Shown here in pieces: positions 16,500 to 42,937 of a DNA stretch of 43,678 nt. The notes beneath the pieces are model-generated. The model saw only the letters and a program-made list of their open reading frames with translations, was not told the origin of the DNA and ran no database searches. The position numbers and the translations under genes are program-made. The stretch's first letter is position 1. Each line of letters begins with the position of its first letter. The DNA lies in the sequence record DRR378314_949, one strand, 5' to 3'.

Positions 16500-16518
16500 T
16501 CCGGAAGTTACTTGACAC

Positions 16519-18450: not shown

Positions 18451-18495
18451 AGGAACCTTCTTGGGAAATGTATCTAAAAAAGGGGTGGAAAAAAA

Positions 18496-19488: not shown

Positions 19489-19631
19489 CGGTGTTCTTGC
19501 GCCAAGCGTGAATCACCATTGCTTTATAGATGCCTCCGAGCCAAAAACAATAACTGGCTGACGAGGCAACTGGAGACGTCAACGGAGAGCTTCTCTAGGC
19601 ACTGCTTATTGTCGGATGACCAGGGGGGAGA

Positions 19632-20224
19632 TGCCATGGCCGCCCTCAAGGGGGACGAGACCACATCCGAGATTGCCGCCCGCTTTCAGATCCAGCCAAC
19701 CATGGTCAACACTTGGAAGCGCGAGTTTCTCGAAAATGCCCCTGACCTCTTCGAGGGCAAGAAAAAGTCTGGCAAGCAGTCCGATGAACCTAACACGAAT
19801 GAGCTCTATCGCGAGATTGGCCGACTGACGGTGGAACACGACTTTTTGTCGCGTAAGCTCGATCAGTAAGCTGTCAACGGCGGTTGGCGATGATCGAGCG
19901 TGGCATCCCCAGGTCAGCATTTCGCGCCAGTGTGAGATGCTCAAGCTGAGCCCACATCGGTCTATTATGTCCCTCTTGAGCAGTGTCAGGAAAATCTGGA
20001 TTTGATGCGTCTGATTGACCAGCAGCGCCTGAAAACACCGTGCTATGGCTCTCGCAAGATGCGTGTTCACTTGGAGCACGAGGGCTATCAGCTCAACCGC
20101 AAGCCGGTGCACTAGCTGATGCGCACCAATGGGCATTCAGGCCGTGTACCCACGGCCCAGAACCAGCATTCCGGGCGACGGGCAAAAGATCTACCCGTAC
20201 CTGCGCAAAGGGCTGAAAATCGAC
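19632..20224 (+). mobile_element. Decayed IS3-family insertion sequence (orfA and 5' orfB remnants)
   Basis: OrfA 'AMAALKGDETTSEIAARFQIQPTMVNTWK...LYREIGRLTVEHDFL'; OrfB pieces 'SISRQCEML', 'YGSRKMR', 'IYPYL' with frameshifts and TAG at 20113-20115; no DDE core or IRs seen. Confidence 0.88.
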
Positions 20225-22840: not shown

Positions 22841-22865
22841 CGTTGTTCCTACGGTCTGAGCGGTA

Positions 22866-23969: not shown

Positions 23970-23980
23970 GGAATGCTCCG

Positions 23981-24814: not shown

Positions 24815-24831
24815 GGAAATACCTCGGTAAC

Positions 24832-25782: not shown

Positions 25783-25845
25783 AATATGTGTTCCCGAAAC
25801 CTGAGGGAGGCCGGCGGCGCCCCCTTTTCCGTTTTGTTTTTAAAG

Positions 25846-25874
25846 TACGGGAGGGCTGGCTCAGCCCTCCCGTA
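25846..25874. other. Intercistronic stem-loop between mtlE and mtlF
   Basis: Perfect 13-bp stem TACGGGAGGGCTG-GCT-CAGCCCTCCCGTA; usual position for an element stabilising binding-protein mRNA. Confidence 0.75.
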
Positions 25875-25881
25875 TCGGGTT

Positions 25882-27252
25882 TCAGTTTTCGTCATCGGGT
25901 GTGATCTTGAGTACTGAGCCAGACAGGTTGTAGCCTGCCCGTTTCATTTCCCGGGTGGTTGTCGCTTGCGCGGCCTGAAGAGCCTGGTCAACAGACATGG
26001 AACCGGCCAGTGCGCCAGACACCAGCTTACCCACCTGGGTACCTATGGCCTGAAACTCCGGAATGGAGACCAGTTGCACACCGGTGTAGGGAACGGGCTT
26101 CATGGTGGCATCGTTGGCGTCTGCCAACTTCATGGCTTCCAGCGTTCTGGCCGCAAACGGGGCTTCTTCCATGTACGCCGCGTTTTCATAGGTTGAGGTA
26201 CGGGTGCCTGGCGGGATATTGGCTATGCCGTCCTCTTCAGCTACCAACTGGCTGTATTCCTTGGAAGTAGCCCAGGTAATAAAGGTCTGTGCGGCCTCTT
26301 TGGAATCGGAGCTTGCGGGAATAGCGAGTGCCCAGGACCACAACCAGCCGGCGCCTTTAGCAGTCTTCTGCTTGGGCGCCAGGGCAAAGCCAACCTCATC
26401 AGGCACCCGGCTTTGCTCTGGATCGGTCAGGAAGCTGCCTGCAACAGTGGCATCCACCCACATGGCACACTTGCCGCTGTTGAACAGGGCCAGGTTTTCA
26501 TTAAAGCCATTGGAGGTGGCGCCGGGAGGGCCGTAGTTGCCCAGCAGATCCACGTAGAAATCAATGGCGTTATTCCAGGCGGAGCCGGTGAATTCAGGCT
26601 TCCACTGCTCATCGAACCAGCGCGCACCAAAGGTGTTAGCGATGGTGGTGACCAAAGCCATGTTTTCGCCCCAGCCCGCCTTGCCACGCAGGCAGATACC
26701 ATATTGGCTCTGGTCAGGTTTGTGCAACTCTTTGGCAAACGACCGTACCTGATCCCAGGTGGGCTGATCGGGCATTGAGAGTCCGGCTTCCTCGAACAGA
26801 TCGGTGCGATAATAGGTCATGGAGCTTTCGGCGTAGAACGGCAGCGCATACAAGTTGCCATCGACCGACAGGCCACTCCTCACAGATGGGAAAATATCAT
26901 CCACGTCATAACTTGCTGGCAGATCCTCCAGGGGCGTCAGCCAACCCTTGTCGCCCCAGATCTGGGTCTCGTAGAGCCCGATGGTCATCACATCGAACTG
27001 ACCGCCGTCGGTCGCAATGTCCGTCGTCAGGCGCTGACGCAGTACGTTTTCTTCCAGCACTACCCAATTGAGTTTGATGTCCGGGTTTGCTGCTTCAAAC
27101 GCGTCTGACAAACCCTTCATGCGAATCATGTCGCCATTATTAACTGTTCCAATGGTGACGGTTGTTTCGGCGGTGGCAACGGTTGGCGCGGAGGCCATGG
27201 CTGAGGCCATGACAGCAGCGGCGGTGTATCGGAGATAGGTGTTTTTGATCAT
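25882..27252 (-). CDS. mtlE: Mannitol/sorbitol/arabitol ABC substrate-binding protein (MtlE/SmoE)
   Basis: Signal peptide; 'TVNNGDMIRM', 'LEENVLRQRLTTDIAT.GGQFD', 'GICLRGKAGWGEN', 'WLWSWALAIP'. Confidence 0.93.
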   Translation of the reverse strand: MIKNTYLRYTAAAVMASAMASAPTVATAETTVTIGTVNNGDMIRMKGLSDAFEAANPDIKLNWVVLEENVLRQRLTTDIATDGGQFDVMTIGLYETQIWGDKGWLTPLEDLPASYDVDDIFPSVRSGLSVDGNLYALPFYAESSMTYYRTDLFEEAGLSMPDQPTWDQVRSFAKELHKPDQSQYGICLRGKAGWGENMALVTTIANTFGARWFDEQWKPEFTGSAWNNAIDFYVDLLGNYGPPGATSNGFNENLALFNSGKCAMWVDATVAGSFLTDPEQSRVPDEVGFALAPKQKTAKGAGWLWSWALAIPASSDSKEAAQTFITWATSKEYSQLVAEEDGIANIPPGTRTSTYENAAYMEEAPFAARTLEAMKLADANDATMKPVPYTGVQLVSIPEFQAIGTQVGKLVSGALAGSMSVDQALQAAQATTTREMKRAGYNLSGSVLKITPDDEN

Positions 27253-27323
27253 TTTCGAACCTCTGCTTATTGTTGGAGTAGGTCGATATCGGTTTTTTGG
27301 AAGCGCGCGAATCATGCCACTCC

Positions 27324-27386
27324 ATTACAAGCCCAATCCGGAAAATGAACAAATACATACTTCAGCGATTTTATATACTTTCTTGC
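27324..27386 (-). promoter_or_regulatory. mtlE promoter with MtlR-type operator
   Basis: GCAAGAAAGTA-N19-GTATTTGTTCATTTTC; TTGTTC-17 bp-TGTAAT; near-identical block upstream of lamB. Confidence 0.8.
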
Positions 27387-27435
27387 TTCTCTCGAGTCGG
27401 TTTGCTTCTCGGTGCTATTAAATAAAATTTTTTTA

Positions 27436-27448
27436 TATCAATTTCTTA
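27436..27448 (+). promoter_or_regulatory. IHF binding site
   Basis: TATCAATTTCTTA matches WATCAANNNNTTR exactly, preceded by an A/T tract. Confidence 0.65.
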
Positions 27449-27525
27449 GAGAGTTCGCGAAATGTTACGGAGCGTAAGTTTGCCGTAGATGATTGCCAGA
27501 AAGTATTGGCCAGAAAGCAGTTTCC

Positions 27526-28422
27526 TCATGGTCGGTAGAGTGCGTCGAGGGACGTTCTACGATATTCCGACGGTGTCATTTTCTTTTGGTCAAAAAAGCG
27601 CCGGTTGAAGTTGGCGATATTGTTAAAACCTGTCAGAAAGCAGATTTCAGTAATCGGCTCATCACTGTGAGCCAGCCATTCACACGCCTTGTTGATTCTC
27701 AGGTTATTGACGAACTCGATGAACCTGTGCCCCGTCGATTTTTTGAAGAATTTGGAGAAGTAGGTCGGACTCATGTGGACGTGGGCCGCAACTTCCTCAA
27801 GCGAAATTGTGCTGTTGTAGTTCTCAAAAATATAGTTCACGGCACTGTTGAGGCGATTGAGGATTCTCTGGTCCATGATGGGAAGGTAGGTAGCTGATGA
27901 GAGCACGCGATAATCCTGCATCGTGGCCAATAACTCAATTAATTCCCAGAATCGTGTCAGGCGGCGGAATCCGCGTGAATCGGCAATTTCTTCGAACAAC
28001 TTCAGGATGTCTGGTCTTTCTTCGATGTTGAGAAACTCAATACCGTACCGGGCACGGTTCCAGAATGGGGTCAGGGCACGCGCTTCCGGGAATACTGATT
28101 CGCAGTTACTGACAAGGCCGGGGGAGAAATTAACAACTCGATCTCGCAGCGCTACCTGATCATCTTTGGCGATCTGGCTGATCCAGTTGTGGGGTAGGTT
28201 GGGGCCCACCAGAACCAAACTGCTCGGGGCAAAATTACCGATGTAGTCACCCACAAACATCTTGCCTGACGTTGCCACGATCAGATGCAGTTCGTATTCC
28301 TCGTGGTAGTGCCAACGCACGAGCGAACTTGGGTATCCGTGATCAAGATACCGAATAGACTCATCGCCCTGTTGGTCGACCCATTCGAATTCCGGCTGTA
28401 TGCGTTGTTTGTTGTTGTTCAT
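27526..28422 (-). CDS. mtlR: AraC family regulator, MtlR-like
   Basis: 'RWHYHEEYELHLI...GKMFVGDYIGNF...GPNLPHNWIS', C-terminal 'GFNNIANFNRRF'; GGTGAGG RBS; located in the mtl cluster. Confidence 0.88.
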   Translation of the reverse strand: MNNNKQRIQPEFEWVDQQGDESIRYLDHGYPSSLVRWHYHEEYELHLIVATSGKMFVGDYIGNFAPSSLVLVGPNLPHNWISQIAKDDQVALRDRVVNFSPGLVSNCESVFPEARALTPFWNRARYGIEFLNIEERPDILKLFEEIADSRGFRRLTRFWELIELLATMQDYRVLSSATYLPIMDQRILNRLNSAVNYIFENYNSTISLEEVAAHVHMSPTYFSKFFKKSTGHRFIEFVNNLRINKACEWLAHSDEPITEICFLTGFNNIANFNRRFFDQKKMTPSEYRRTSLDALYRP

Positions 28423-28608
28423 GCGTTTCCTCACCTGCCTTTCGTGCGTGCAATTCAGTCAAGCTGACGCTGAGCTTTGAAGCCAGTGATACTTTCTGGT
28501 AATCGCCGAATGCCAAGCCTTTCTGCCTACGCCCGAATTAAGTCTACAACCGTCTGATATAGATAGTTTTCATATCATGCGCCCAGAGTGTTTTTAATGC
28601 CAGCGGAG

Positions 28609-30048
<1,440 letters not shown>

Positions 30049-30066
30049 ACAGTCTCCACCAGCCTT

Positions 30067-30110
30067 GGCGGGTACAGTCGACCTTCTCTGTCGACTTGCC
30101 CGTCCTTTTT
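30067..30110 (+). terminator. Internal terminator-like hairpin after lamB
   Basis: GGCGGGTACAGTCGAC-CTTCTCT-GTCGACTTGCCCGTC followed by CTTTTT. Confidence 0.7.
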
Positions 30111-30159
30111 CGCTGTTAGGCAACAGCTCGTTCCGTGTGCGGATAAGGGAATATCTTCG

Positions 30160-30834
30160 ATGAAAGCCTTGTTTTTTGACTGCGATGGCGTGCTGGTAGA
30201 CAGCGAGTCTCTCGCTGAGGCTGTGCTGGCGGAGCGAATAGAAGAATGGTTGCCCGATTTGAAACCGGATGTCGTTCTGAGGGAGTTGCCGGGAATGACA
30301 ACAGGAAACAGTCTCAGATATCTGGAGGCCCTCAGCAGCCATTCGTTGCCTCACAACGCCACAAACATGGTTGAAAAGGCGATTGACGCCCGGCTCAAGC
30401 AGGAGCTTCGCGCCGTTGAAGGGGTGTCTGAAATCATCTCCCGATTGACTCTCCCAATGGCGATAGTTTCCAACTCCAGTTGGCGGCGTGTAAAGAACTC
30501 TCTAGCCACTACCGGTCTCGATAGGTGGTTGAGCCGAGTCCCGGTTTTTAGCGCACAGCAGGTTCTGCATCCCAAACCAGATCCAGGTATTTATCGGCTG
30601 GCCGCTCGGACCTTGTCAAGACGACCGGCCGATTGCCTGGTATTGGAAGACAGTGTCTCCGGTGTCACCGCAGCTTACGCTGCAGGTATGACTGTCATCG
30701 GATTTATAGGCGCGAGTCATGTGCTGGATCAATCTGCTCATAGCAAAAAACTGTCGCTGGCCGGCGCATGGAGAACCATTGGCGCAATGAAGGATCTCGA
30801 ATCCCTTGTGGCTGAATGGTGCGACAACCACTAA
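30160..30834 (+). CDS. HAD-IA family phosphatase
   Basis: FDCDGVLVDSE, VSNS, KPDPGIY, LEDSVSGV. Confidence 0.9.
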   Translation: MKALFFDCDGVLVDSESLAEAVLAERIEEWLPDLKPDVVLRELPGMTTGNSLRYLEALSSHSLPHNATNMVEKAIDARLKQELRAVEGVSEIISRLTLPMAIVSNSSWRRVKNSLATTGLDRWLSRVPVFSAQQVLHPKPDPGIYRLAARTLSRRPADCLVLEDSVSGVTAAYAAGMTVIGFIGASHVLDQSAHSKKLSLAGAWRTIGAMKDLESLVAEWCDNH

Positions 30835-30881
30835 TCACTCCATTACGACTCACATCAACATGACTCAAGGAGTTCCCGTTC

Positions 30882-32363
30882 ATGACAGCATTGAGTACCG
30901 CCACCCTTGAACAGCTCAGCAGCGATATCATCGTCCCCGGTTACGATCGGGATGCAGTCACGGCGGGCATTGTCCACTTCGGAGTGGGTGGTTTTCACCG
31001 AGCACATCAGGCAGCCTATATTGAGGAACTGATGCAGCAAGGTCAGGCGATGGATTGGGGGATTGTCGGCGTTGGGGTCATGCCCGGCGACCGTGCCATG
31101 CAAGAAGCCCTGATGGCACAGGACTGCCTCTACACCATGGTCGTCAAGCATGCTGATGGCCGAATTGAGCCGAAGGTGATCGGCAGTCTGATTGATTATC
31201 TGTTCGCGCCTGACAACCCTGATGTGGTCATCGAACGTATGGCTGACCCGGCCATCCGGATTGTGTCCCTGACCGTGACAGAAGGGGGCTACAATATTCA
31301 CCCGGTGACCGGCGAATTCAACGCCGATCATCCTGACGTGCAACACGATCTTGCCGAACGCAAGCATCCAAAAACTACCTTTGGGCTGATCAGTGAAGCC
31401 CTGAGGCGGCGCCGTGAGCGGGGCCTACCACCATTTACCGTGATGTCCTGCGACAATATCCCTGGCAACGGCGATGTGGCCCATCATATGTTCATCGCGT
31501 TTGCCCGTCTTCTCGATCCGGAACTGGCACATTGGATTGAGCGGGAAGTCGCATTTCCCAATTCCATGGTGGATCGCATAACCCCTGTCACCACCCAAGC
31601 AGACATTACGGAACTCAAACATCGCTTTGACCTTGAAGATCGCTGGCCCGTGGTTTGTGAACCCTTCACCCAGTGGGTGCTGGAGAACCGGTTTGTCAAC
31701 GTGCCCCCGCCGCTGGAACAGGTTGGCGTTCAGCTCGTTGACGATGTGGAGCCCTATGAACTGGTCAAGCTACGCTTGCTTAACGCCAGCCACCAGGCGC
31801 TGTGCTACTTCGGTTATCTGAGCGGTTATCGCTATGCCCACGAGGTATGTCAGGACCCGCTTTTCGTGGATTTCCTGCTGGCTTACATGGAGCGCGAAGG
31901 CTCTCCGACACTGCCGGAAGCACCTGGGGTGGATCTCGATGCCTACCGCCGGACCCTGATCAAACGGTTCGCCAACCCGGAAATCCGGGATACCCTGGTA
32001 AGACTCTGCGCGGAAAGCTCGGACCGCATCCCCAAATGGTTGCTGCCGGTCATCAAGAAGCAACTGGAGACCGGCGGCGAAATGCACCGTGCGGCCGCCG
32101 TTGTGGCCAGTTGGGCCCGCTATGCCGAGGCCATCGATGAATCCGGCAATCCCATCGACGTGGTTGATCCGCTGAAAGACAACCTGAAAGCCATCGCTGC
32201 CAATAACCGGGAAAACCCTTTGGCGTTTATCGAAAATCGTACTCTGTTTGGCGATCTGGCCGATCATCAACGCTTTCGAGACGCCTACCTGGCAGCCCTG
32301 GAAAAACTCCACGCAGAGGGGGCTCGTGCCACCGTGGAAATGTTGGTGAGAGGCGAGCTGTGA
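30882..32363 (+). CDS. mtlD: Mannitol 2-dehydrogenase (long-chain polyol dehydrogenase; family also oxidises D-arabitol)
   Basis: GIVHFGVGGFHRAHQA, SLTVTEGGY, SCDN, FPNSMVDRITP, KLRLLNASH. Confidence 0.92.
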   Translation: MTALSTATLEQLSSDIIVPGYDRDAVTAGIVHFGVGGFHRAHQAAYIEELMQQGQAMDWGIVGVGVMPGDRAMQEALMAQDCLYTMVVKHADGRIEPKVIGSLIDYLFAPDNPDVVIERMADPAIRIVSLTVTEGGYNIHPVTGEFNADHPDVQHDLAERKHPKTTFGLISEALRRRRERGLPPFTVMSCDNIPGNGDVAHHMFIAFARLLDPELAHWIEREVAFPNSMVDRITPVTTQADITELKHRFDLEDRWPVVCEPFTQWVLENRFVNVPPPLEQVGVQLVDDVEPYELVKLRLLNASHQALCYFGYLSGYRYAHEVCQDPLFVDFLLAYMEREGSPTLPEAPGVDLDAYRRTLIKRFANPEIRDTLVRLCAESSDRIPKWLLPVIKKQLETGGEMHRAAAVVASWARYAEAIDESGNPIDVVDPLKDNLKAIAANNRENPLAFIENRTLFGDLADHQRFRDAYLAALEKLHAEGARATVEMLVRGEL

Positions 32364-33859
32364 GCGGTATTTACGTAGGTGTTGATTGCGGCACCCAGAG
32401 CACCAAAGTGGTGGTCATTGATGTGGAGCAGGGCGCTATTCTGGGAGAGGGCTCTCGCCCCCATCAATTGATCGAAAACGAGAGTGGTCGACGGGAACAG
32501 GATCCTGAAACATGGATGGCCGCTTTTTACGGCGCCTTTGGCGATGCGGTAAAGAGCTCTGGCATTGATCGGCAGGCAATTCGGGCCATTGGCGTATCCG
32601 GCCAACAACACGGCATGGTCGCCCTGGATGAGCATGGCCAACCTGTGCACCCGGCCAAGCTCTGGTGCGACACGGAGACAGCTAGACACAACGCCAGTCT
32701 GGTTGGGCGACTTGGTGGTGAGGCCGGCTGTCTCGACAAGCTGGGGCTAGTGCTACAAACCGGCTACACCGCTTCAAAAGTAGCCTGGCTGCGGGAGCAG
32801 CATCCCAGTGCCTACCGGCGTATTCACCATATTCTGTTGCCTCACGATTACCTGAACTACCGGTTAACCGGTAACTGCGTTGCTGAGGCAGGCGACGCTT
32901 CGGGCACGGGGTATTTCGATACCCGCACGCGGCAGTGGCGTCACGATGTGTTTTCTGAAATAGCGCCCGAACTGGACGCCGAGAGCGTGCTTCCGCGATT
33001 GATCGCTTCCCATGAACCTGCTGGAACCGTGCAGCCGTCGGTCGCCGAACAGCTTGGCTTACCTGAGGGAGTGCTGGTATCCAGCGGCGGTGGCGACAAC
33101 ATGATGGGTGCCATTGGCACGGGCAATATCGAGCCGGGACTGGTGACGCTCAGTCTAGGCACATCGGGCGCTATTTATGCGTTCTCTGACAGGCCGGTTA
33201 TTGCCGACAACCCCATGGCCGCCAACTTTTGTGCCAGTAGTGATGGCTGGTTGCCATTGGTGTGCACCATGAACGTCACCTCTGCCACGATGGCTGTTCG
33301 TAACCTCTTCGACCTGGATCTGGGGACCTTCGGCCAGCGGGTGGCCTCGGCGCCCGCTGGTGCCGAAGGTGTGATCATTCTGCCATTCTTTAACGGCGAA
33401 CGGGTGCCTATGTTGCCCAACGCAAAGGCCAGCTTTCTGGGACTGAACAATGTCAATGCAACCCAGGCTAATCTCTGCCGCGCGGTCGTCGAAAGCGCGA
33501 CGTTTGGCCTGCGCTATGGTCTCGAATTGCTGGGCAATCTGGCCCGGGACGCTCGTCAGATCCGCCTGATCGGGGGCGGTGCGAAAAGCGCGGTCTGGCG
33601 TCAGATCGTTGCTGACATTCTTGGAGTAGAGGTCATCTCTCCGAACGTCAATGAGGCCGCCGCACTGGGAGCCGCTATCCAGGCCGCCTGGTGTGACGAG
33701 ACCCGGCGGGATAGCACGGCGACGCTGACAAGACTGTGCGACAGCATGGTACGGCTGGATAAAGAAACCTTAACCAATCCGGATTCCGAGACCCAAGCGG
33801 TCTACCAGGACATCTACAGGCGCTATCGCAACGCCCTGGAAGATCTTCACGGTGTTTAA
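32360..33859 (+). CDS. xylB: Xylulokinase (MtlY/XylB)
   Basis: GVDCGTQSTK, SGQQHG, AKLWCDT, GGGDNMMGAIGTG, FFNGERVP; GTGA overlap with mtlD. Confidence 0.93.
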   Translation: MSGIYVGVDCGTQSTKVVVIDVEQGAILGEGSRPHQLIENESGRREQDPETWMAAFYGAFGDAVKSSGIDRQAIRAIGVSGQQHGMVALDEHGQPVHPAKLWCDTETARHNASLVGRLGGEAGCLDKLGLVLQTGYTASKVAWLREQHPSAYRRIHHILLPHDYLNYRLTGNCVAEAGDASGTGYFDTRTRQWRHDVFSEIAPELDAESVLPRLIASHEPAGTVQPSVAEQLGLPEGVLVSSGGGDNMMGAIGTGNIEPGLVTLSLGTSGAIYAFSDRPVIADNPMAANFCASSDGWLPLVCTMNVTSATMAVRNLFDLDLGTFGQRVASAPAGAEGVIILPFFNGERVPMLPNAKASFLGLNNVNATQANLCRAVVESATFGLRYGLELLGNLARDARQIRLIGGGAKSAVWRQIVADILGVEVISPNVNEAAALGAAIQAAWCDETRRDSTATLTRLCDSMVRLDKETLTNPDSETQAVYQDIYRRYRNALEDLHGV

Positions 33860-33903
33860 CCGCCGCAGGTTTTGGATGAAACCAACAACAAAAGGACAGT
33901 GAC

Positions 33904-34860
33904 ATGACTCAACTGGATGCACTCAAACAACATTCCATGGTGGTGGCGGATACCGGTGATCTGACCGCCATAAGGCGCTACGAACCCCATGATGCAACCA
34001 CCAATCCATCATTGATTCTAAAGGCGTTCGATTTGCCGGATCACCAGCGACTGATTGATGAAACGCTGGCCAGCGTAAAACGCGACGCCATCGACGCGAC
34101 AGCAAGTGTCGAGCAGGCAGTAGATCGTTTGTCCGTTGCCATTGGCGCGGAGATTGCGGGCATCGTTCCGGGGCGAGTGTCCACTGAAGTCGCTGCACGT
34201 CTGTCTTTTGATACCCAGGCAAGCATTCGCAAAGCACACGAACTGATCGAGCATTATGACCGCCTGGACGTGCCCAGGGAGAGGGTGCTGATCAAACTGG
34301 CCTCGACCTGGGAAGGAGTGCGGGCGGCCGAGGTACTCGAGAAGGAAGGTATTCAGTGCAACCTGACCCTGCTTTTCAGCGATGCCCAGGCTCAAGCTTG
34401 CTTTGATGCAGGCGTTTTCCTCGTCTCGCCTTTTGTAGGTCGGGTTACCGACTGGTACACCAGGGAAACCGGCCAGAACTTTACACCGGACAAAGATCCG
34501 GGAGTTGAGTTCGTCCGCGGCGTTTGCCAACTCGCCGATAAAGGAAATTACGAAACTGTGGTGATGGGTGCCAGTTTCCGAAACACGGGCCAGGTGCTGG
34601 CATTGGCCGGTTGCCCGCGTTTGACGATCTCGCCGGCGTTGCTTGAAGAACTCTCGGGACATGATGAATCAGTGGCATTAAAGCTCGCTAAAAACACTGC
34701 TGGCAAGAACTCGCAACCGCCCATAACTGAATCGGAGTTCCGCTGGAATCACAACGAAAATGCCATGGCCAATGAGAAATTGGCAGAAGGTATTCGGCGC
34801 TTTGCCGAGGACCAATTTCGACTGGAGGTATTGATCAACGAGCGACTCGCTTCTGTCTGA
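33904..34860 (+). CDS. tal: Transaldolase
   Basis: [47 protein letters not shown]. Confidence 0.96.
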
Positions 34861-34900
34861 ATATTTGAACACCTCATTTGATGTCTATAAGGGATATTCC

Positions 34901-36895
34901 ATGCCAACTCGATTCCAGCTCGCTAATGCTATTCGCGCTCTATCCATGGACGCCGTTCAAAAGGCAGGATCCGGGCATCCCGGTGCCCCGATGGGCATGG
35001 CCGATATTGCAGAAGTACTCTGGAACGGGTACCTGCAGCACAACCCGGCAGATCCTCATTGGTTTAACCGGGACAGGTTCGTACTTTCCAACGGCCACGG
35101 CTCGATGCTGCTTTATTCACTGCTACATCTTTGCGGTTACGACGTAACGATTGAGGACCTGAAAAACTTTCGACAGCTCCATTCCAGGACCGCTGGGCAC
35201 CCGGAACTGGGTTACGCGCCGGGAGTTGAGACCACAACCGGCCCGCTCGGCCAGGGATTGGCCAACGCTGTCGGAATGGCGCTGGCGGAGCGCACTCTGG
35301 CGGCCCGGTTCAATCGTCCGGGTCATACAATCGTGGATCACCATACTTATTGCTTCGCAGGCGACGGATGCCTGATGGAAGGAATTTCTCACGAGGCCTG
35401 TGCGCTGGCAGGCACTCAGGGTTTGGGCAAACTGATCACTATCTATGATGACAACGGTATTTCCATTGATGGTGATGTGGAGGGATGGTTTACCGACGAC
35501 ACTGCCAAGCGCTTCGAGGCCTATAACTGGCATGTAGTACCCGTTGTTGACGGCCATGATCCCGAAGAAATCCAGGCCGCCGTCGAACAAGCCCTGAACC
35601 AGACGGATAAGCCAAGCCTGATCATCTGTAAGACTATTATCGGGTTTGGATCTCCTAACAAGCAGGGCAGGGAAGAATGCCACGGTGCTGCACTTGGCGA
35701 GAGTGAGGTCGCCGCCGCTCGTCAGCAACTCGATTGGCCTCACCCTGCCTTTCAAGTGCCTGAAAACATCTACGCGAGTTGGAACGCAACTGAGGCCGGC
35801 CAAAACAGGCAGAAAGAGTGGGAAACAAAGTTGGCGGAATATGCCAGGGAATTCCCAGAGCTGGCTTCGGAACTCGAGCGCCGCATTAGAGGCACGCTGC
35901 CTACCAGCCTCAGCAGCGAAGCGATGATCAAGTCCGCTCAGGAAAAGGGCGAGAGCATAGCCAGCCGCAAGGCCTCACAGAGTTGTCTTAACCAACTGGG
36001 CCCTCAGCTTCCGGAATTAATCGGCGGCAGCGCTGACCTCGCTCCCTCAAACCTGACCTTTTGGAAAGACGCCCAGGCCATCAGTACGGATACGCCTGCC
36101 GGAAACTATCTGCACTACGGGGTACGGGAGTTTGGAATGGGTGCCATTATGAATGGCATCAGGTTGCATGGTGGCTTCGTGCCCTATGGCGCAACGTTTC
36201 TGATCTTTATGGAATACATGCGTAATTCGATACGAATGGCTTCTCTGATGGGCTTGCAGGCGATATATGTATTCACCCATGACTCAATTGGTCTGGGCGA
36301 AGACGGCCCCACACACCAGCCAGTTGAGCAGCTTACAAGCCTGCGCTCGACCCCGAAGCTCTCAACATGGAGACCCTGCGATGCGGTCGAGACCGCTGCC
36401 GCCTGGCATGCCGCGCTTCAGCGTTCCAACGGCCCCACCGCTTTAGTATTATCGCGACAAACTCTGTCTCATCAGATGCGAAACAGGCGGCAAGTTGAGG
36501 ATATCCAAAGAGGGGGCTATGTACTTGCCGACAGTGCGGAGGTTCCGGAACTGATTCTGATCGCTACCGGCTCGGAAGTCAGTCTGGCCATGGACGCAGC
36601 TAACCTTCTCAGGGAACAGGGCCGGGCCGTACGCGTCGTTTCCATGCCTTCAGTCGACCATTTTGAGCTTCAGGATACCGAGTATCGTGAGTCTGTGCTT
36701 CCATCTTCAGTTACCGCTCGCCTGGCAATCGAGGCCGGTCATCGTGACTTCTGGTACAAGTACGTTGGTCTGAAGGGCGCTATCGTAGGCATGAACGGTT
36801 TCGGCGAATCCGCACCAGCGGAGGATTTGTTCAAACAGTTTGGCTTTACTGTCGAGAATGTGGTGGAACAGGCCTCTGCACTGATTGAGAGCTGA
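34901..36895 (+). CDS. tkt: Transketolase
   Basis: [58 protein letters not shown]. Confidence 0.97.
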
Positions 36896-36943: not shown

Positions 36944-38833
36944 CTAGGGCTCATCAACACGAAACTTCCTGGTGCTCTCGGCAAGCGCTTTCGCTTGTCG
37001 GGACAACTGATCGTTGAGGGTTCCGAGCTCATTACCAATTGACTGTGTCTCTGTGCTCTGGCTACGAATGTCTTCCATTTTGTGGGCAATATCGTCGGTG
37101 GTCACGGAGATTTCCTCCACCGCCACAACCACCTGTTCCATTTCCGAATTCAGCGTTTCGATAGACGTGGTGACGCCGCCCATGGCGTCGGCGATGCGGG
37201 AGGCGCTGCGTTCACCATCCCGGGCAAGGTCAAGACCGTCGGTTGTGAGCGTATCCATACGTTTGGTCTGTGTATTCAACTCGTCGATGATGCCAACGAT
37301 ATTCGTAGTTGCAGCAACGGTTTTGTGAGCCAGCGAGCGTACTTCATCAGCCACTACGGAAAAGCCACGCCCTTTATCACCGGCACGGGATGCTTCAATT
37401 GCCGCATTGAGAGCGAGCAGGTTAGTCTGGCCGGCCAGACCATTGATGACGTCAATAATACCCGTGACTTTTGCGCTCGCGTTCGTGAGTGACTGAACGT
37501 GGCTGTGGGTTTGCTGAATCATGGCGGACAATCGGCGGGTTGCTTCAGCGCTGCTCTCAACCACGTGGGCACCGGCGTGCGCCGATTCGTTGGCCGCCTG
37601 GGTTGATGCTCCGACTTGAGAGGTGCGGTTCGCGATATCGTTGATCGTGACGGAAATCTCCTGGCTCGCCGTGGCGGCCTGGACTGTCTGGGATTCCACT
37701 TGTGCGTTGTTGCGGGCCAGGCGCTGCATTGCTTTATCCAGCTCGCCGTGCACCTCCAGCAGGCTATTGGTGCTTCTGACGGTTTGGCGCATGAGATGTC
37801 CGATGTTGTCGATCATCTGATTGGTCGCCGCCCCGAGCTTGTTAAATTCATCATGCGGGTTTTTGCTAAGGGCCAGCTTCCCGGTGAGATCGCCGTTGGA
37901 GACGCGCGATAACAGGTTGATTACTCGGTTTAGCTGACGCACCAATGCGTTGGAGGTCAGTAAGAGAATCAGCATGAAAAGTGGAGTGAAGACGGCAATC
38001 GCTCCAAGACTGGCGGTTTTTGCAGAGGACTGTGAGGATTCCGCGGCGGCAATCGATTCGGCAACAAGCCCCGTCTCCAGCTCTTCAGCCTGGGCAAGAA
38101 CCTGTTGTTGGAGCTGCAACCCGGCGCGTTCAGCGCGCCTGTCGGCACCGACAAGTTTTTGGGTGAGGGCGTCAGCACGGTCGAACAGAGCTCGGTAGAC
38201 CTGTGTTCGATCGTCGACGACGCTACCCTCAAACGCATATTCCTTGATCTGTGCCTCCATATTATCCAGCGCTGCACGGGACTCCTCCCGAAAGGAACGT
38301 CCGAGACTGGCGAAATAGGCGGTGTTGGTGCGATAAATCTCAGTAAGTGCCTTATCAAAGAGGCTGAGTTCTAGCGACTCCAGTTCGTCGAATGCCGCAC
38401 CCAGTTTCTGACGGATCCCCTGGCTGTCAGCGGAGCCAAGCGCAGTGAACTGTTCGAGCCAGGCTTTCCGGGCTGCAACGTAGGCGCTGGTCCTTTGAGC
38501 GATCCCTTCCGCAGAATTTAGTGTGTCTGGATCATTCAGGCCAACAGCCTGCTGTTTGAGCCGTTCTGCATTGACGCTCAAGGTGTTTAAGCGTTTCTGA
38601 ACAATTTCGGCGTCACTGGTCGCATAGTTGCTCAACTGTTTCTCGAGCCGGTTCCAGTGGGTAACCAGTGTGACCGCCGCGTTCTCATAACGGGCCACTT
38701 CATGGATGAATTGATAGGACGACGATACGGTCTCAAAGCCCTGAAAGACGGTGACTGTGATAAACAATAGCCCCGCTGGCGCAGCGATAACCAGCGCGAG
38801 AAACTTTTGACGCCAAGACAGGTAGATCCGCAT
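36944..38833 (-). CDS. Methyl-accepting chemotaxis protein with large (~240 aa) helical periplasmic sensor
   Basis: Two TM segments, [38 protein letters not shown]. Confidence 0.94.
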
Positions 38834-38850
38834 ACCGCTACTTCTCTCAC

Positions 38851-38932
38851 TTATCGGCTAAAAGCTTAATAAATAGCATTGGATAGCGGAGCTTGCCTAT
38901 ACTCGTGGTCGCCAAGATATATACTTTCCTGT
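38851..38932 (-). promoter_or_regulatory. MCP promoter with MtlR-type box and sigma28-like -10
   Basis: ACAGGAAAGTATATA...AGTAT (22-bp period) at 38899-38932; GCCGATAA at 38851-38858. Confidence 0.55.
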
Positions 38933-38995
38933 TTCGGTAATGTGGTTCTAGAGGTACGGCAGGGAACGGGCGGGTGGCCAGTTGATAGGATGTAC

Positions 38996-39907
38996 TCAGG
39001 AAGCGGATTGGCAGTTGTTGTACCTGATGTCATTCGCCCAGCGTCGATAACAGGAAGGCGTCATTTCCTTGTGGGCAAAAAAATGCCGGTTGAAGTTGGC
39101 GATGTTGCTAAAGCCCACGTCAAAGCAGATCGCAGTGATCTGCATGTCAGAGTTAGCAAGGAGGTCACAGGCCCGAGCGATGCGAAGGCTGTTCACAAAC
39201 TCAATAAACCGGCGCCCCGTCGCCTTGCGGAAGAACTTCGAAAAGTAGTTCGGTTTCATGGAAAGGTGATCGGCAACGGCTTCCAGTGTTATGTTGTTTC
39301 GGTAGTGTTGCATTATGTAGTTTACGGCATCGTTGATTCGTGCGTTCACGTTTTCATCGCCCAGTTGGGTAAATTGTTCACTGGAAAGAAGCTGAAAATC
39401 ATTGGTCTGTGAAAGAATGTGCATTATTTTGAAGAAATCAGACAGTTTCAACAGCGGAGAGGCCGTTGCGATCTCAGAGATTAATTGGTGAACATGCTCA
39501 ATGAGTTGCGGGTTGTAAAATTCAATTCCGTAACGCGAATTTTGTAACAGAGTATCCAGCTCACCAACTTCAGGAAAGGTACTCTTTGACGACTGAACTA
39601 AATCATCGGTAAAAGTGACCACCTTGTCTCGTTCGGGGTAGACTTCATTATTGTCAGCCTGGGTAATCCAGTTGTGGGGCACGTAGGGACCGGTAAGTAT
39701 CAGTTGGCCTGGGTAAAAGTTACCGATATAGTCGCCGACAAACACTTTGCCGTGACTGTGAGTGATCAGGTGGAGCTCGTATTCCTCGTGGTAGTGCCAG
39801 CGCACAAGCGGGTGGGGGAATCCATGTTCACGATAAAGCACGGACTGAGTTTCCGTTGGAGTGATGAGTTCATATGACGGTTCTGGCGCAGCTATTTTTT
39901 TCATCAT
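38996..39907 (-). CDS. Second MtlR-like AraC regulator
   Basis: 'VRWHYHEEYELHLI...GKVFVGDYIGNF...PHNWI', 'GFSNIANFNRHF'; clear paralog of 27526-28422. Confidence 0.9.
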   Translation of the reverse strand: MMKKIAAPEPSYELITPTETQSVLYREHGFPHPLVRWHYHEEYELHLITHSHGKVFVGDYIGNFYPGQLILTGPYVPHNWITQADNNEVYPERDKVVTFTDDLVQSSKSTFPEVGELDTLLQNSRYGIEFYNPQLIEHVHQLISEIATASPLLKLSDFFKIMHILSQTNDFQLLSSEQFTQLGDENVNARINDAVNYIMQHYRNNITLEAVADHLSMKPNYFSKFFRKATGRRFIEFVNSLRIARACDLLANSDMQITAICFDVGFSNIANFNRHFFAHKEMTPSCYRRWANDIRYNNCQSAS

Positions 39908-40009: not shown

Positions 40010-40037
40010 AATTTAGCAACTAGCCGCTTTGTGTCAA
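40010..40037 (-). promoter_or_regulatory. Sigma70 promoter for the second AraC gene
   Basis: TTGACA-16 bp-TAAATT on minus strand. Confidence 0.5.
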
Positions 40038-40090: not shown

Positions 40091-41443
40091 CTAGGTGAGG
40101 TTACTCTCATTTGACAACCGAAACCTTAGTCCCGGCTCGGCTCGCTCTGCTGTGAGGTGCCAACCATGCGCCGACGCAATCTCCTGACAAATCGATAAGC
40201 CCAGACCAGCCCCATGGTCTCGACGATGCTCGGCACGCCAGAAGCGTTCGAATAAGAGGGGAAGATGGACCGAATCGACGCCGGCCCCCCTGTCTCGCAC
40301 GGTTATTGTCTTGCTCTGGATCTCCACGCTGACCGATGTCTTCGCCGGCGCATGCTGAATAGCATTCTCCAGCAAATTTTTCAGCAGAGTGAAGCATGCC
40401 GAACGATCCGCCTTCCACCTCACGTCGCCGCCAGCAGCGCGAACCTTGAGGCGAACGTCCGCAGAGCCGGCCATGCGCTGCAAGTAGGAAGCGACCTCCT
40501 GGGCAACTTCCTGCACCGGCACAAGGGCGAAGTTGTAGTTTTGGGCCTCGCTTGCTTCAGCAAGGAGAAGAAGCTGCTGCACCTGCCGCGTCATGTATTC
40601 GACGTCGCTCAACAAAGAGTCGCCGTCGCTCCCTCCATCCTCTCTCAATTCGACCTGGGCGCGGATCAACGTGAGTGGTGTCTTCAGCTCATGTGCCGCG
40701 TTGGCGAGAAACTCCTGCTGTACGCGATAACCCCGTTCGAGACGTTCAAGGGCGTGATTGAAACTGTCGACCAGAGGGGCGATCTCCGTGGGAATTGTGT
40801 CTGTCTGCAGCCGGGCGTTGATGGAGATGGGGGAGATGGCCGCGGCGGATTCCGATACGTCCCGCAACGGCTTGAGGGTATAGCGCAGCGTGATGTAAGC
40901 ACACAAGCCGAAGGCGATAAACAGGACACTGCCGAATATTATGATGCCAGCCACTACCAATGGAAAAGCAGCGCCATAGAGGAGATCCACAAGCCTCGCA
41001 CTGGCAGCGAATTGTAGATGCCACATTCGGCCGGCATACTCGAGGGGCTGCGTGGCACCGAAAAAAGTGTTCCCCTTATGCTTGAAAGTAAAATTGCCGC
41101 GCTCCAACCGAAGAAGGCCGCCGCCGGCCAGCCAGAACTCCTTCCCTCTGCTTGAGAGGGCAGTCACCTTTCCGGCGTCATCCAGAACCCGATAGGCTGT
41201 TTCGCGGTATAACAACCAGGCGAGATCCTCTAGGCGGCGCGAGTCGATTCCCACGGGCCTACCATTACCGTCGAACTCGATATCGTCCGCCAGCCTCTCG
41301 GCGGCATCGGCCAGATCCATTCGCGCAAGCACATTGCTCTGAAGCAATATGACTGCAGCGATGACGAGCAGTGTAAGGCTGAGTACCACTCCTGCCACAT
41401 AGGCCAGTAGAATCTTCAGCCTCAGGCTATTGAACTGCATCAT
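40091..41443 (-). CDS. Sensor histidine kinase (2 TM, HAMP, HisKA, HATPase)
   Basis: H box FLANAAHELKTPL, N box NLLENAIQH, DRGAG, LFERFWR, GAGLGLSI; exact start uncertain (41440-41458). Confidence 0.93.
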   Translation of the reverse strand: MMQFNSLRLKILLAYVAGVVLSLTLLVIAAVILLQSNVLARMDLADAAERLADDIEFDGNGRPVGIDSRRLEDLAWLLYRETAYRVLDDAGKVTALSSRGKEFWLAGGGLLRLERGNFTFKHKGNTFFGATQPLEYAGRMWHLQFAASARLVDLLYGAAFPLVVAGIIIFGSVLFIAFGLCAYITLRYTLKPLRDVSESAAAISPISINARLQTDTIPTEIAPLVDSFNHALERLERGYRVQQEFLANAAHELKTPLTLIRAQVELREDGGSDGDSLLSDVEYMTRQVQQLLLLAEASEAQNYNFALVPVQEVAQEVASYLQRMAGSADVRLKVRAAGGDVRWKADRSACFTLLKNLLENAIQHAPAKTSVSVEIQSKTITVRDRGAGVDSVHLPLLFERFWRAEHRRDHGAGLGLSICQEIASAHGWHLTAERAEPGLRFRLSNESNLT

Positions 41444-42113
41444 CTTCGCGAAGCGCATACCCGAAACCTCTTACGTTGACGATCCGCTGGCACGAACCTA
41501 TGGCGAGCAGCTTGCGGCGCAGGCGATGCAGGGCCACGTCCAGAGCGTTCGGTGTGACCGCCTCGCTTAGTCCCCACGCCGCTGCTTCCAGTGCGCTGCG
41601 GCGCACCAGTTCTTTGGGCTTGAACAAGAGCAATTGCATGATGTGCAGCTCCGCCGGGGCGAGGGTGACGCTTTTGTCGTCGCTGCACAGCACCCCGGTT
41701 TCGGGGCGCAGGGTGAGATCGCCATGGCTGGGGTCGAATGGGTGAAATTCCACTGGGCGGCGCAGAAGGGCCCGGACACGCGCGACCATCTCGTCCATGG
41801 CGAAGGGCTTGGGCAAATAGTCGTCGGCACCTGCTTCGAGCCCCTGTACCCGGTCATGCAACGCATCACGTGCCGTCAACACGAGGCAGGGAATGCCAAG
41901 AGCCTCACTGCGGAGCTTTTTCAGCAGGAGGAGGCCATCCCCGTCCGGTAATCCCCTATCGAGAATCAATGCCTGATAGGGCATCTGCTTGACGGCAGCC
42001 CATGCGCCACTGATGTGGCCGGCTACATCGACGGCGATGCCGGCAGCCTCCAGCCCCTTGCACATCAGCCGAGCCAGCCGGTCGTGGTCCTCGACCAGGA
42101 GTATTCGGCTCAT
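41427..42113 (-). CDS. OmpR-family response regulator (QseB/PmrA-like)
   Basis: RILLVED, ILDRGLPDGDG, LTARD, GADDYLPKPF, wHTH 'LHRLRRKL...NVRGFGY'. Confidence 0.94.
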   Translation of the reverse strand: MSRILLVEDHDRLARLMCKGLEAAGIAVDVAGHISGAWAAVKQMPYQALILDRGLPDGDGLLLLKKLRSEALGIPCLVLTARDALHDRVQGLEAGADDYLPKPFAMDEMVARVRALLRRPVEFHPFDPSHGDLTLRPETGVLCSDDKSVTLAPAELHIMQLLLFKPKELVRRSALEAAAWGLSEAVTPNALDVALHRLRRKLLAIGSCQRIVNVRGFGYALREDDAVQ

Positions 42114-42937
42114 CAGAAGCGGTAGATATAGCCAAGGGTCAAGCTATTAGCGGTTGAGAGATCCACCAGTGGGCTATCCTTGATCTCATCCGCCAAGCCC
42201 GTCACTTGGATCTGCATGAGCACAGTATGGTGTCTTTTGAACATATAGATGCCACTCACCCCCGCCTCGATATTGGTAACGGACTCCCCCGTATACGCGG
42301 GGCGGTCGATACGAACCTCGCCGTCGCTAACGCCGAAATAGTAATCCACGGTCCTCTTATTCTGCCAGTTCGCCCCCAGATGCGGAATGAGTAAAAAATG
42401 ATAGCCGATGTGCCAAGTCCTCTCCAGGCTAAGGTTAACTACTTGGCCATTGCTGTTGTCTGAGGCGTCGGCAAGCCATTCAGCGCTGACATTAACCAGG
42501 TCGCTGCTCCACTCAATCTTCGCGCCCGCCCAAAAGCCGCCCTTGCGCTCACTCATGCCGTCGAGGATCGGGGCGTCGCCTTCCTCGTAACCGCTGCCGT
42601 CGTACTTGCCGACGATACCAAAATTGAGCCGTTGAGAGTCATGTATGTCGAAACTTGGCAGTTTGAACTCAATTCGGGGACCGAAGAGGTGAATGTACTG
42701 GTTCTCGACCTCAAGTAGAGGTATTAGCATGTTTTCCCGATCGATACCGGTGTAAGGCTCCTGCTGACTCGATTCGCCCAGCCCCAGCCCCCAAGTCGTG
42801 GTGGAGGACAACCTGGGGTCGGTTGGCTCCTGGGCCGTGGCTGTCACCGAGGCGCAGAGGCCAAAGGCGAGGTTTGAAACAGCAGTCATGCGGGAGGTGG
42901 AACCGCGGGTGACGGAGGCAAATGGGCGGGGCGACAT
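42113..42937 (-). CDS. MipA/OmpV family outer-membrane protein
   Basis: Signal-like N-terminus, 'WGLGLG', 'DYYFGV', 'IKDSPLVD', C-terminal YRF; TGATG coupling to the regulator gene. Confidence 0.88.
   Translation of the reverse strand: MSPRPFASVTRGSTSRMTAVSNLAFGLCASVTATAQEPTDPRLSSTTTWGLGLGESSQQEPYTGIDRENMLIPLLEVENQYIHLFGPRIEFKLPSFDIHDSQRLNFGIVGKYDGSGYEEGDAPILDGMSERKGGFWAGAKIEWSSDLVNVSAEWLADASDNSNGQVVNLSLERTWHIGYHFLLIPHLGANWQNKRTVDYYFGVSDGEVRIDRPAYTGESVTNIEAGVSGIYMFKRHHTVLMQIQVTGLADEIKDSPLVDLSTANSLTLGYIYRF

Follow-up and report, generated by a model that had tools for sequence, protein, structure and literature searches.

The window analysed here is a 43,678-nucleotide stretch of DNA from a Marinobacter-like bacterium, and beside its polyol cluster it carries a gene for a methyl-accepting chemotaxis protein of 629 residues (P0001; 36944–38833, minus strand, from the list of open reading frames and its translation). 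The receptor gene is flanked on one side by tkt (34865–36895, plus strand) and on the other by the gene for an AraC/XylS activator, AraC2 (38996–39907, minus strand), which is directly upstream in the same orientation. Over 288 residues AraC2 shares 49% identity with the MtlR encoded next to mtlE, in agreement with a preliminary description of this DNA that had placed the receptor gene between tkt and an MtlR paralog. GC content gave no indication of a foreign island, and a search of the whole window against Rfam returned no match.

An alignment of the receptor with 14 typed homologs begins at its residue 1, and its features, all on the minus strand, fit a class-I transmembrane chemoreceptor. 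A hydrophobic stretch at about residues 11–31 (38741–38803), lying inside a continuous model helix of residues 7–68, is the putative first transmembrane helix, and a putative second one at about residues 272–294 (37952–38020) lies within model helix 256–299; both were read from hydrophobicity and the structure model. Between them is a helical periplasmic sensor domain of some 237 residues (approximately 32–268; 38030–38740). The second helix is followed by a HAMP-like linker (residues 293–344; 37802–37957) that scores 19.7 bits against Pfam HAMP, under the 25-bit cut-off, a precomputed HAMP match being present in many homologs, and then by the signalling domain (residues 426–590; 37064–37558), which matches PF00015 MCPsignal at 127.3 bits against a cut-off of 34.6 bits (E = 7e-37). 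An NCBIfam search with the receptor gave matches to the cytoplasmic domain only, far under the cut-offs.

The sensor domain had been described beforehand as helical, HBM-like and about 240 residues long, and structure prediction bears this out: the model is all-helical (mean pLDDT 84.7) and is predicted to form two stacked four-helix bundles over that length, as in the ligand-binding domain of McpS from Pseudomonas putida KT2440 (PDB 2YFA/2YFB). McpS is the best structural match, and it shares the overall architecture of the receptor. Direct comparison with 2yfb_A gave a Z of 17.7 and an rmsd of 2.7 Å over 203 of 235 residues, the top four Foldseek matches were all McpS chains (E = 5e-3 to 1e-2), and in a wide structural search independent of Foldseek 2yfa_A ranked first among 48,161 representatives (Z 17.6). 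The next full-length match in that search was the TorS sensor in its complex with TorT (Z 14.5), which compared directly with the model gave a Z of 16.2 over 207 of 229 residues. TorS (PDB 3I9Y, 3O1H) has a similarly stacked double four-helix-bundle periplasmic domain, but it is a histidine kinase rather than a chemoreceptor and is 8% identical, so that the likeness is one of fold only.

McpS has no detectable sequence similarity to the sensor domain (11% identity in the structural alignment), and the domain matches no Pfam family at E values up to 10, HBM (PF16591) included; PF16591 likewise gave no match to four receptor homologs at E values up to 0.1. A profile of the N-terminal 300 residues found weak coiled-coil matches only, and no solved sensor domain, among PDB sequences, and the 4HB_MCP and HBM clusters returned by the ESM Atlas at about 0.9 serve as leads only. 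A word-indexed search with residues 25–300 returned none of 8000 scored candidates at an E value of 0.001, a blank that is an artefact of the word index, since an exhaustive HMMER search with the sensor region gave 18 cluster representatives. To its nearest relatives the receptor is approximately 40% identical in the sensor domain as against 70% in the cytoplasmic part. Two sensor-domain positions that are 99–100% conserved in 115 homologs are altered in this copy alone (W201F and G207D) and, going by helix lengths only, would be located at the membrane-distal tip. Because the homologs found are 24–41% identical in the sensor domain, they say little about the ligand of this receptor. We also considered the genes neighbouring the homologs as a clue to the ligand and rejected them as variable and uninformative.

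The regulator directly upstream belongs to the MtlR family. Its C-terminal double helix-turn-helix matches Pfam HTH_18 at 77 bits and HTH_AraC at 37.4 bits, and in a phylogeny of 34 regulators it is nested in a 16-row clade of mtlE-adjacent MtlR proteins (support 100/99). Its sister (support 97/94) is a regulator encoded directly upstream of mtlEFGK-mtlD-HAD-xylB. AraC2 retains 71 of the 75 columns that are invariant in the 13 other clade members, with positions of both recognition helices and of the effector domain at the N-terminus among them; two other clade members keep 71 of 76 (L045) and 71 of 80 (L050) clade-invariant residues. Its terminal branch, at 0.86, is the second-longest in the tree, so that a change of effector is possible. 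Among 401 genomes none of its relatives exceeded 60% identity, and a metagenome scan that returned 80 loci contained no ortholog, the best identity being 52%. The canonical regulator upstream of mtlEFGK is a separate gene, mtlR (27526–28422, minus strand; assigned by Pfam), whose product shares 77% identity with the regulator next to mtlE in Marinobacter maritimus, has recognition helices near-identical to those of AraC2 and is a possible cross-regulator. MtlR holds the usual place beside mtlE, and AraC2 is followed not by mtlE but by the receptor gene. The arrangement of regulator, approximately 160 bp and co-oriented target copies the mtlR–mtlE order of canonical loci. Genes of this family are commonly linked to polyol genes: the 80 metagenomic loci include relatives of MtlE in 38, MtlD in 49 and MtlK in 51, and 25 of 32 genomic loci have a gene for MtlE or an MtlD/XylB-like protein within 1.5 kb.

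PMC4514859 describes the MtlR site of Pseudomonas fluorescens DSM 50106 as two 15-bp half-sites with a 22-bp period abutting the −35 element, each half-site comprising an A-box, 5 bp and a B-box, with 7 bp between half-sites, and names mannitol, arabitol and glucitol as inducers of MtlR/PmtlE. Two operators in the window fit this layout fully and were used for reference, one at the mtlE promoter (27353–27389, minus strand), where it is followed by conserved −35 and −10 hexamers, and one at the promoter of lamB-HAD-mtlD-xylB-tal-tkt (28606–28642, plus strand). The mtlE gene (25882–27252, minus strand; Pfam SBP_bac_1), read from an internal ATG with a ribosome-binding site, encodes a polyol ABC-transporter binding protein with a signal-peptide-like N-terminus and 71–77% identity to the MtlE of related loci.

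Upstream of the receptor gene there is a 37-bp candidate operator of the MtlR family (38899–38935, minus strand), consisting of two direct 15-bp half-sites (38921–38935 and 38899–38913) with B-boxes 22 bp apart. The B-box pentamer is present as exact copies, in direct orientation, at 38921–38925 and 38899–38903. According to the preliminary description, a second pentamer stood at 22 bp here as in the mtlE and lamB operators; this is correct for the receptor promoter, but mtlE and lamB carry one-base variants at +22, and the exact copy in the mtlE operator is at +18, out of register. A promoter word said to be common to the receptor and mtlE genes was confirmed as an 11-base word that occurs exactly twice in the window, at 38918–38928 (minus strand) in the receptor promoter and at 27372–27382 (minus strand) in the mtlE promoter, with no further occurrence when one mismatch was allowed. 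Dinucleotide shuffles contained it 0.15 times on average, and at least two matches were seen in 2 of 100. An alignment sets the receptor element in register with the two reference operators of the window and with mtlE promoters taken from nine other genomes, and by eye the same operator layout can be seen at 18 metagenome loci.

We scored these sites with an independent operator matrix, built only from the mtlE promoters of the nine other genomes. The mtlE and lamB operators gave the best and second-best scores of the window (22.7 and 19.1 bits), and the receptor site scored 9.4 bits. This places it third among 32 upstream regions scanned in gene orientation, followed by scores of 6.2 and 2.9 and then of 0.2 bits or less. 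In the scan of the whole window it is sixth, and the sites above it include one of 11.3 bits at 11114 and one of 10.0 bits at 27819, inside the mtlR coding sequence, both of which are probably chance matches. On account of this ranking, the receptor site is as a sequence match moderate, not strong. When the 162-bp intergenic region was shuffled 5000 times with dinucleotides preserved, 9 of the shuffles reached this score; with a matrix that included the window's own sites the element scored 15.7 bits, which none of 5000 shuffles reached. In an MtlR operator an A-box lies 10 bp upstream of each B-box; the first one here is close to A-boxes of the window itself and to several variants from metagenomes, and the second is not. 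We tried the first A-box variant as a marker of the AraC2 clade and rejected it, as the same variant is found in 7 of those 18 metagenome loci, whose regulators are closer to MtlR. The mtlE and lamB operators are each preceded by an inverted distal half-site, which is missing at the receptor promoter.

Projection of the fixed operator, −35 and −10 spacing of the aligned mtlE promoters onto the receptor gene places a putative weak promoter core at 38870–38898 (minus strand), with a poor −35 at 38893–38898 and, separated from it by 17 bp, an AT-rich hexamer resembling a −10 at 38870–38875. The −35 hexamer conserved at the mtlE and lamB promoters is missing here and the projected −10 is poor, and a scan for consensus sigma-70 promoters found none upstream of the receptor gene. 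Such a sequence would be compatible with a promoter that depends on an activator, without being evidence of it. AraC2, by comparison, has a sigma-70-like promoter at 40010–40037 (minus strand; 10 of 12 consensus positions, 16-bp spacer, from the promoter scan), and the matrix found no MtlR-type box upstream of it (0.2 bits). In the interval from AraC2 to the receptor gene the scan detected nothing resembling a terminator.

One outcome named beforehand as refuting the proposal, homologs without linkage to mtl genes, is what the relatives found show. In flanks of up to 10 kb, mtl genes and MtlR-family genes are absent from all 32 homolog loci, and in each of them the 300 nt preceding the receptor gene lack a forward-oriented box core. 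Conversely, a receptor gene was found at none of the 80 metagenomic MtlR-family loci (flanks up to 6 kb) and at none of the 32 genomic ones (1.5 kb), and a metagenome scan with the N-terminal part of the receptor returned no relative. Short contigs of approximately 88% identity, from two soil-metagenome runs of two studies (records 6 and 13), span the start of the receptor gene, the intergenic region and the end of AraC2. Set against the receptor-homolog and MtlR-family loci, the AraC2–receptor pairing is so far unique, and without comparative support.

We tentatively favour, at a little under even confidence, control of the receptor by an MtlR-family activator, probably AraC2, that induces its expression. 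In favour of such control are the operator layout and its rank by matrix, the 11-base word shared with mtlE, the clade placement and conservation of AraC2, the link of its family to polyol genes, the gene order, the 88%-identical contigs, and the sigma-28-type promoter that three Marinobacter homologs carry and this gene lacks; the HBM-like fold, with its Z of 17.7 to McpS, was also counted towards this reading. Against it are the moderate operator score, the lack of the conserved −35 and of the distal half-site, the lack of any such pairing among receptor-homolog or MtlR-family loci, and the long branch of AraC2. The preliminary description had gone further and proposed that the receptor is wired into the catabolic regulon. 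The MtlR-family operator layout and the conserved AraC2 upstream argue for the wiring, but the adjacent paralog is a likelier regulator than MtlR itself, and membership of the catabolic regulon may therefore be too simple a description.

What the analysis shows is the anatomy of the gene, its fold class, the family of the regulator and the statistics of the operator-like element; from these we infer binding, induction, effector and ligand as follows. AraC2 would be made from its own sigma-70-type promoter, and as a dimer would bind the two direct 15-bp half-sites (38899–38935) abutting the weak promoter core. When loaded with its effector, which by family membership may be a polyol such as mannitol, glucitol or arabitol, it would recruit RNA polymerase, by analogy with what has been shown for MtlR at PmtlE in P. 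fluorescens. MtlR may act at the same site, and read-through from the AraC2 promoter may supply a basal level of receptor, which would feed the CheA/CheW/CheV pathway. The receptor element has the regulator family and operator layout of MtlR/PmtlE in common; it differs in that the target there is a transporter operon and here a chemoreceptor gene, that its A-boxes and −35 deviate, and that the regulator is a divergent paralog.

It is also conceivable, if on the unlikely side, that this is an ordinary chemoreceptor that lies beside the polyol cluster by chance, with a non-functional element and with transcription by read-through or from another promoter; its ligand would then most likely be an organic acid, as for the HBM receptors known to us. 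The probably spurious sites at 11114 and inside mtlR score similarly to the element, both the −35 hexamer and the distal half-site of the true operators are missing, and no terminator-like site would stop transcripts coming from AraC2. The variable neighbours of the homologs, none with mtl genes, and the 112 MtlR-family loci, none with a receptor gene in the flanks examined, point the same way. However, the element is in the right strand and register and at the right distance from the start codon, ranks next after two true operators among the 32 upstream regions, has a score reached in few shuffles (9 of 5000), and is directly downstream of a conserved MtlR-family gene.

Less probable again, and in our view decidedly unlikely, is that AraC2 does control the receptor but with a diverged effector, so that the module responds to and senses another sugar or an unrelated metabolite. 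The branch length of 0.86, the identity ceilings of 60% in genomes and 52% in metagenomes, the low identity of the sensor domain to its nearest relatives (40% against 70% in the cytoplasmic part) and the W201F and G207D changes are what such a history might leave. Set against this, AraC2 keeps its 71 of 75 invariant positions much as L045 and L050 keep theirs, and its nearest relative stands directly upstream of a polyol operon.

Constitutive transcription by sigma-28, as a member of the flagellar and chemotaxis regulon, was considered and is thought improbable: an octamer at 38851–38858, 25 nt before the start codon, exactly matches the sigma-28 −10 consensus, and three Marinobacter homologs (L001, L002 and L004; 57% identical) have a complete sigma-28-type promoter approximately 110 nt upstream, but the gene here is without that promoter and has no −35 element at the spacing of those homologs, a start just past the octamer would remove the purine-rich ribosome-binding stretch, and of the four copies of the octamer in the window three are intragenic.

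The most economical guess at the chemoeffector of the receptor would be the polyol, acting either directly or bound to MtlE that docks on the sensor domain. Polyol sensing, direct or through MtlE, is plausible but unsupported, and MtlE as an indirect ligand carrier is a speculative candidate. The HBM-type receptors described in PMC6321045 and PMC4926252 argue against it, since their ligands are neither sugars nor polyols: McpK senses an organic acid, alpha-ketoglutarate, and CtpL of Pseudomonas aeruginosa phosphate through PstS. McpS was crystallised with malate and succinate (PDB entry titles). CtpL is in concept the nearest precedent, being a receptor tied to an uptake regulon that receives its signal by way of a binding protein. 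From the same two sources, this HBM-type chemoreceptor is stimulated by the ligand-loaded PstS of its cognate ABC transporter, and it is expressed more strongly when conditions induce that uptake system. There the system is phosphate under Pho control; here polyols under an AraC-type regulator would be its counterpart only as a proposal. TorS, whose fold the model resembles, senses its ligand only via a periplasmic binding protein (PDB entry title; PMC6321045).

A search of the full-text literature found no paper describing a polyol-binding chemoreceptor. In enteric bacteria, taxis towards mannitol depends on the PTS. The earlier statement that no characterised receptor has this arrangement can stand for polyols only, as receptors co-regulated with uptake or catabolism are known, CtpL with Pho being one (PMC4926252). 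The receptor genes of NahY and PcaY in Pseudomonas putida are reportedly under the pathway's own regulator, with taxis and catabolism induced together; their substrates are aromatic, and their regulators and sensor domains are of other families. McpS is not known to be tied to any pathway-specific activator.

The complete polyol-chemotaxis module, in which a diverged MtlR paralog induces an HBM/TorS-like receptor that reads polyol-loaded MtlE at its membrane-distal tip, is a long shot. Were it real, no earlier polyol chemoreceptor outside the PTS would be known to us, and no earlier case of an MtlR-family regulator that has passed from controlling transport to controlling behaviour; if the promoter proved unresponsive, the protein would be one more orphan HBM-like receptor. 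Most bacterial chemoreceptors are without a known ligand and gene context rarely helps, whereas here it gives a concrete and cheaply testable hypothesis, with named inducers (mannitol, glucitol and arabitol), a site of 37 bp, AraC2 or MtlR as the regulator acting on it, and MtlE as a possible carrier protein. Mannitol is a major storage compound of algae and fungi, and an induced taxis to it would matter for marine and soil heterotrophs locating such sources. For the regulator family, the receptor gene would be a case of how a paralog can exchange a transporter operon for a sensory gene as its target.

The receptor open reading frame (36944–38833, minus strand) encodes 629 residues and carries an MCP signalling domain at residues 426–590 (Pfam, 127 bits). 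A HAMP match at residues 293–344 scores 19.7 bits, below the 25-bit Pfam cut-off, and a hydrophobic helix stands on either side of residues 32–268, for which Pfam gives no match up to an E-value of 10. As the preliminary description had it, the gene lies between tkt (34865–36895), with which it is convergent, and an AraC-type paralog of MtlR, here termed AraC2 (38996–39907), which precedes it on the same strand after a gap of 162 bp and is 49% identical to the MtlR of the window. To its left is a complete polyol locus, in which mtlR followed by mtlEFGK-pgi-frk (20235–28434, minus strand) is divergent from lamB-HAD-mtlD-xylB-tal-tkt (28681–36895, plus strand). The RecA encoded in the window shares 91–93% identity with the proteins from three Marinobacter genomes and 81–82% with those from two others, and the host is therefore Marinobacter-like.

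The longest mtlE frame (25882–27315, minus strand) is 21 codons longer at its 5' end than the gene read from the probable start at 27252, which has a predicted ribosome-binding site and signal peptide, and it would overlap the inferred mtlE promoter; the final ~15 MtlE residues fall outside alignments to homologs. AraC2 is preceded on its strand (40091–42937, minus) by genes for a MipA-like protein, a response regulator of the OmpR type and a histidine kinase, which show no obvious connection with the polyol genes. Directly left of the polyol locus, 13255–19488 encodes a sigma-54 response-regulator activator, a second chemoreceptor with a HAMP domain (14883–16499), a GAF-GGDEF-EAL protein and CheV; no MtlR-type box was found upstream of any of these genes (scores ≤ −1.4). 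Pfam gives no match at an E-value of 1e-5 for two frames, at 19606–20136 (minus strand, 176 residues) and 6165–7199 (plus strand, 344 residues).

Relatives of AraC2 at an E-value of 1e-40 or better occur in 40 of 401 genomes of the order, the closest being a regulator (60% identity) encoded directly upstream of mtlEFGK-mtlD-HAD-xylB in genome G384. A maximum likelihood tree of 34 regulators nests AraC2 in a clade of 16 rows that holds the mtlE-adjacent regulators (support 100/99), where it groups as sister of the G384 protein (97/94) with a long branch of its own (0.86), while the window MtlR pairs with the regulator of Marinobacter maritimus (77% identity). These placements indicate that AraC2 is no recent copy of the resident mtlR. 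Of 75 columns that do not vary among 13 other members of the clade, it retains 71, in effector domain and recognition helices alike, and it looks functional from its sequence; its recognition helices are near-identical to those of MtlR, and cross-talk of the two regulators at one another's sites is plausible. The association of the MtlR family with polyol genes is close: an MtlE or MtlD/XylB-like gene lies within 1.5 kb in 25 of 32 genomic loci, and the 80 metagenome loci include relatives of MtlE in 38, MtlD in 49 and MtlK in 51. A chemoreceptor gene was found in the flanks examined of none of these 112 loci.

In Pseudomonas fluorescens, PMC4514859 describes an MtlR half-site as a 5-bp A-box, a 5-bp spacer and a 5-bp B-box, with 7 bp between two half-sites to give a 22-bp period, the whole spanning −72 to −36 and adjoining the −35 element. 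We aligned the regions upstream of mtlE at ten loci from other genomes. Nine have this layout followed by conserved −35 and −10 hexamers at fixed spacing, and one (L055) has no forward box. The window mtlE and lamB promoters are in register with the nine foreign sites, as is the receptor promoter except at the −35 hexamer, which is conserved in true MtlR operators but missing here. Both sequence features proposed earlier for the receptor promoter were borne out: the 11-base word shared with the mtlE promoter occurs exactly twice in the window (38918–38928 and 27372–27382; shuffle mean 0.15), and a second B-box pentamer sits 22 bp downstream of the first. Upstream of the mtlE and lamB operators there are also near-identical inverted distal half-sites (27492–27506, plus strand, and 28489–28503, minus strand), each 125 nt from its proximal operator between box starts, whereas the receptor promoter has none. 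The spacing is 126 nt in M. maritimus, and five Pseudomonas-type loci lack the element; it looks like the AraC-style looping sites, here flanking mtlR. Eight bases from the first half-site of the receptor operator recur inverted within the 3' end of AraC2 (39049–39056, plus strand), ~9 bp farther out than the distal half-sites, a match noticed by eye only that may be due to chance.

A matrix built only from the nine foreign mtlE sites was used to scan all window positions on both strands. The two top scores went to the window operators of mtlE (22.7 bits) and lamB (19.1 bits), in that order, which validates the matrix. The receptor site (38899–38935) scored 9.4 bits and ranked sixth, also behind one site adjoining mtlR and two others that are probably spurious. 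Among the 250-nt upstream regions of 32 genes, in gene orientation, it ranked third, ahead of mtlR (6.2 bits), the next region (2.9 bits) and the rest (≤ 0.2 bits). Dinucleotide shuffling of the 162-bp intergenic region reached the receptor-site score in 9 of 5000 trials, and when the window's own two sites were added to the matrix the score of 15.7 bits was reached in none of 5000. Given these scores, ranks and shuffle counts, the resemblance to an MtlR operator is real but moderate.

The expectation that homologs of the receptor be linked to mtl genes failed for the relatives found. Across 32 loci encoding sensor-domain relatives (flanks up to 10 kb, shorter at four), no MtlR-family gene and no relative of MtlE, MtlF, MtlG, MtlD, XylB, Tal, Tkt or LamB was found; five loci had generic ABC ATPases only (27–36% identity to MtlK), and neighbours vary between loci. 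No homolog has a forward box core within 300 nt upstream, and two have it reversed. In M. maritimus, a homolog of the receptor (57% identity) and an mtl locus are both present, on separate contigs. That locus, mtlR-mtlEFGK-mtlD-pgi-frk, has neither the receptor nor AraC2 nor the divergent operon, to which mtlD belongs in the window. The window thus joins the uptake of polyols with xylulokinase and additional enzymes of the pentose-phosphate pathway, suggesting that arabitol is used. In two soil-metagenome runs, each from a different study, short contigs cover the beginning of the receptor gene, the intergenic region and the end of AraC2, with 33 differences over some 290–300 bases, indicating that the adjacency exists in somewhat diverged relatives. 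That the box is fortuitous or non-functional and the proximity to polyol genes accidental would fit the unlinked homologs and the missing hexamer; with the shuffle counts and the rank among upstream regions on the other side, we consider this somewhat unlikely.

When residues 32–268 were compared exhaustively by HMMER with 1.84 billion cluster representatives, only 18 proteins came in at or below an E-value of 0.001, the closest with 40% identity. Over the full length, identity rises to 59% in relatives from Marinobacter and to ~40% in those from Pseudomonas and Stutzerimonas; with the nearest relatives, the sensor part shares 40% of its residues and the cytoplasmic part 70%. The sensor domain had been called HBM-like. 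It does not match the Pfam HBM profile, but its AlphaFold2 model (15-sequence alignment; all-helical, pLDDT 84.7, pTM 0.71) supports the fold: the four top Foldseek matches in the PDB are McpS ligand-binding domain chains (E 5e-3 to 1e-2), and VIA-align gives Z 17.7 for McpS (rmsd 2.7 Å, 203 of 235 residues), 16.2 for the TorS sensor (207 of 229 residues) and 14.5 for the TorS–TorT complex. A Foldseek-independent search of 48,161 representatives again placed McpS first (Z 17.6), with PcaY second (Z 14.9, over 132 residues only). We know of no precedent for direct polyol binding by an HBM-like fold. Indirect sensing through a binding protein has precedents in this fold class in TorS with TorT (PDB entry titles) and CtpL with PstS (PMC4926252, PMC6321045). 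That the receptor senses a polyol, directly or through MtlE, the transporter's binding protein, is doubtful. In the sensor part, 22 columns are conserved at ≥ 90% in 115 homologs, and the receptor departs at three of them; two of the changes are W201F, at a position with W in 99%, and G207D, where 100% have G. These departures and the long AraC2 branch would suit an AraC2-controlled module in which effector and ligand have both changed; set beside the retained effector-domain columns, such a change seems quite unlikely.

Scans found neither a consensus sigma-70 promoter ahead of the receptor gene nor a terminator-like site between it and AraC2, which has a predicted sigma-70 promoter at 40010–40037 (10 of 12 consensus positions). 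Constitutive expression by sigma-28 is very unlikely: three Marinobacter homologs have a complete sigma-28-type promoter ~110 nt upstream, and the receptor gene has a −10-like octamer (38851–38858, minus strand) located 25 nt ahead of the start codon and lacks a −35 element at the homologs' spacing.

From the family of AraC2, the order of the genes and the statistics of the operator-like site we tentatively infer regulation by AraC2, the likeliest of the readings if somewhat short of probable. AraC2, perhaps aided by MtlR, would occupy the two half-sites at 38899–38935 and, with polyol bound, would activate a weak promoter, so that the receptor would be produced when polyols are available.

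Co-induction of a receptor with uptake or catabolic genes is already known in kind, NahY and PcaY being induced together with catabolic genes. CtpL is a known chemoreceptor induced together with uptake genes (PMC4926252). No description of a polyol-binding chemoreceptor was found in the open-access literature searched. If the reading is true, the polyol substrate class, an MtlR-family paralog as regulator and an uncharacterised HBM-like sensor family would be new.
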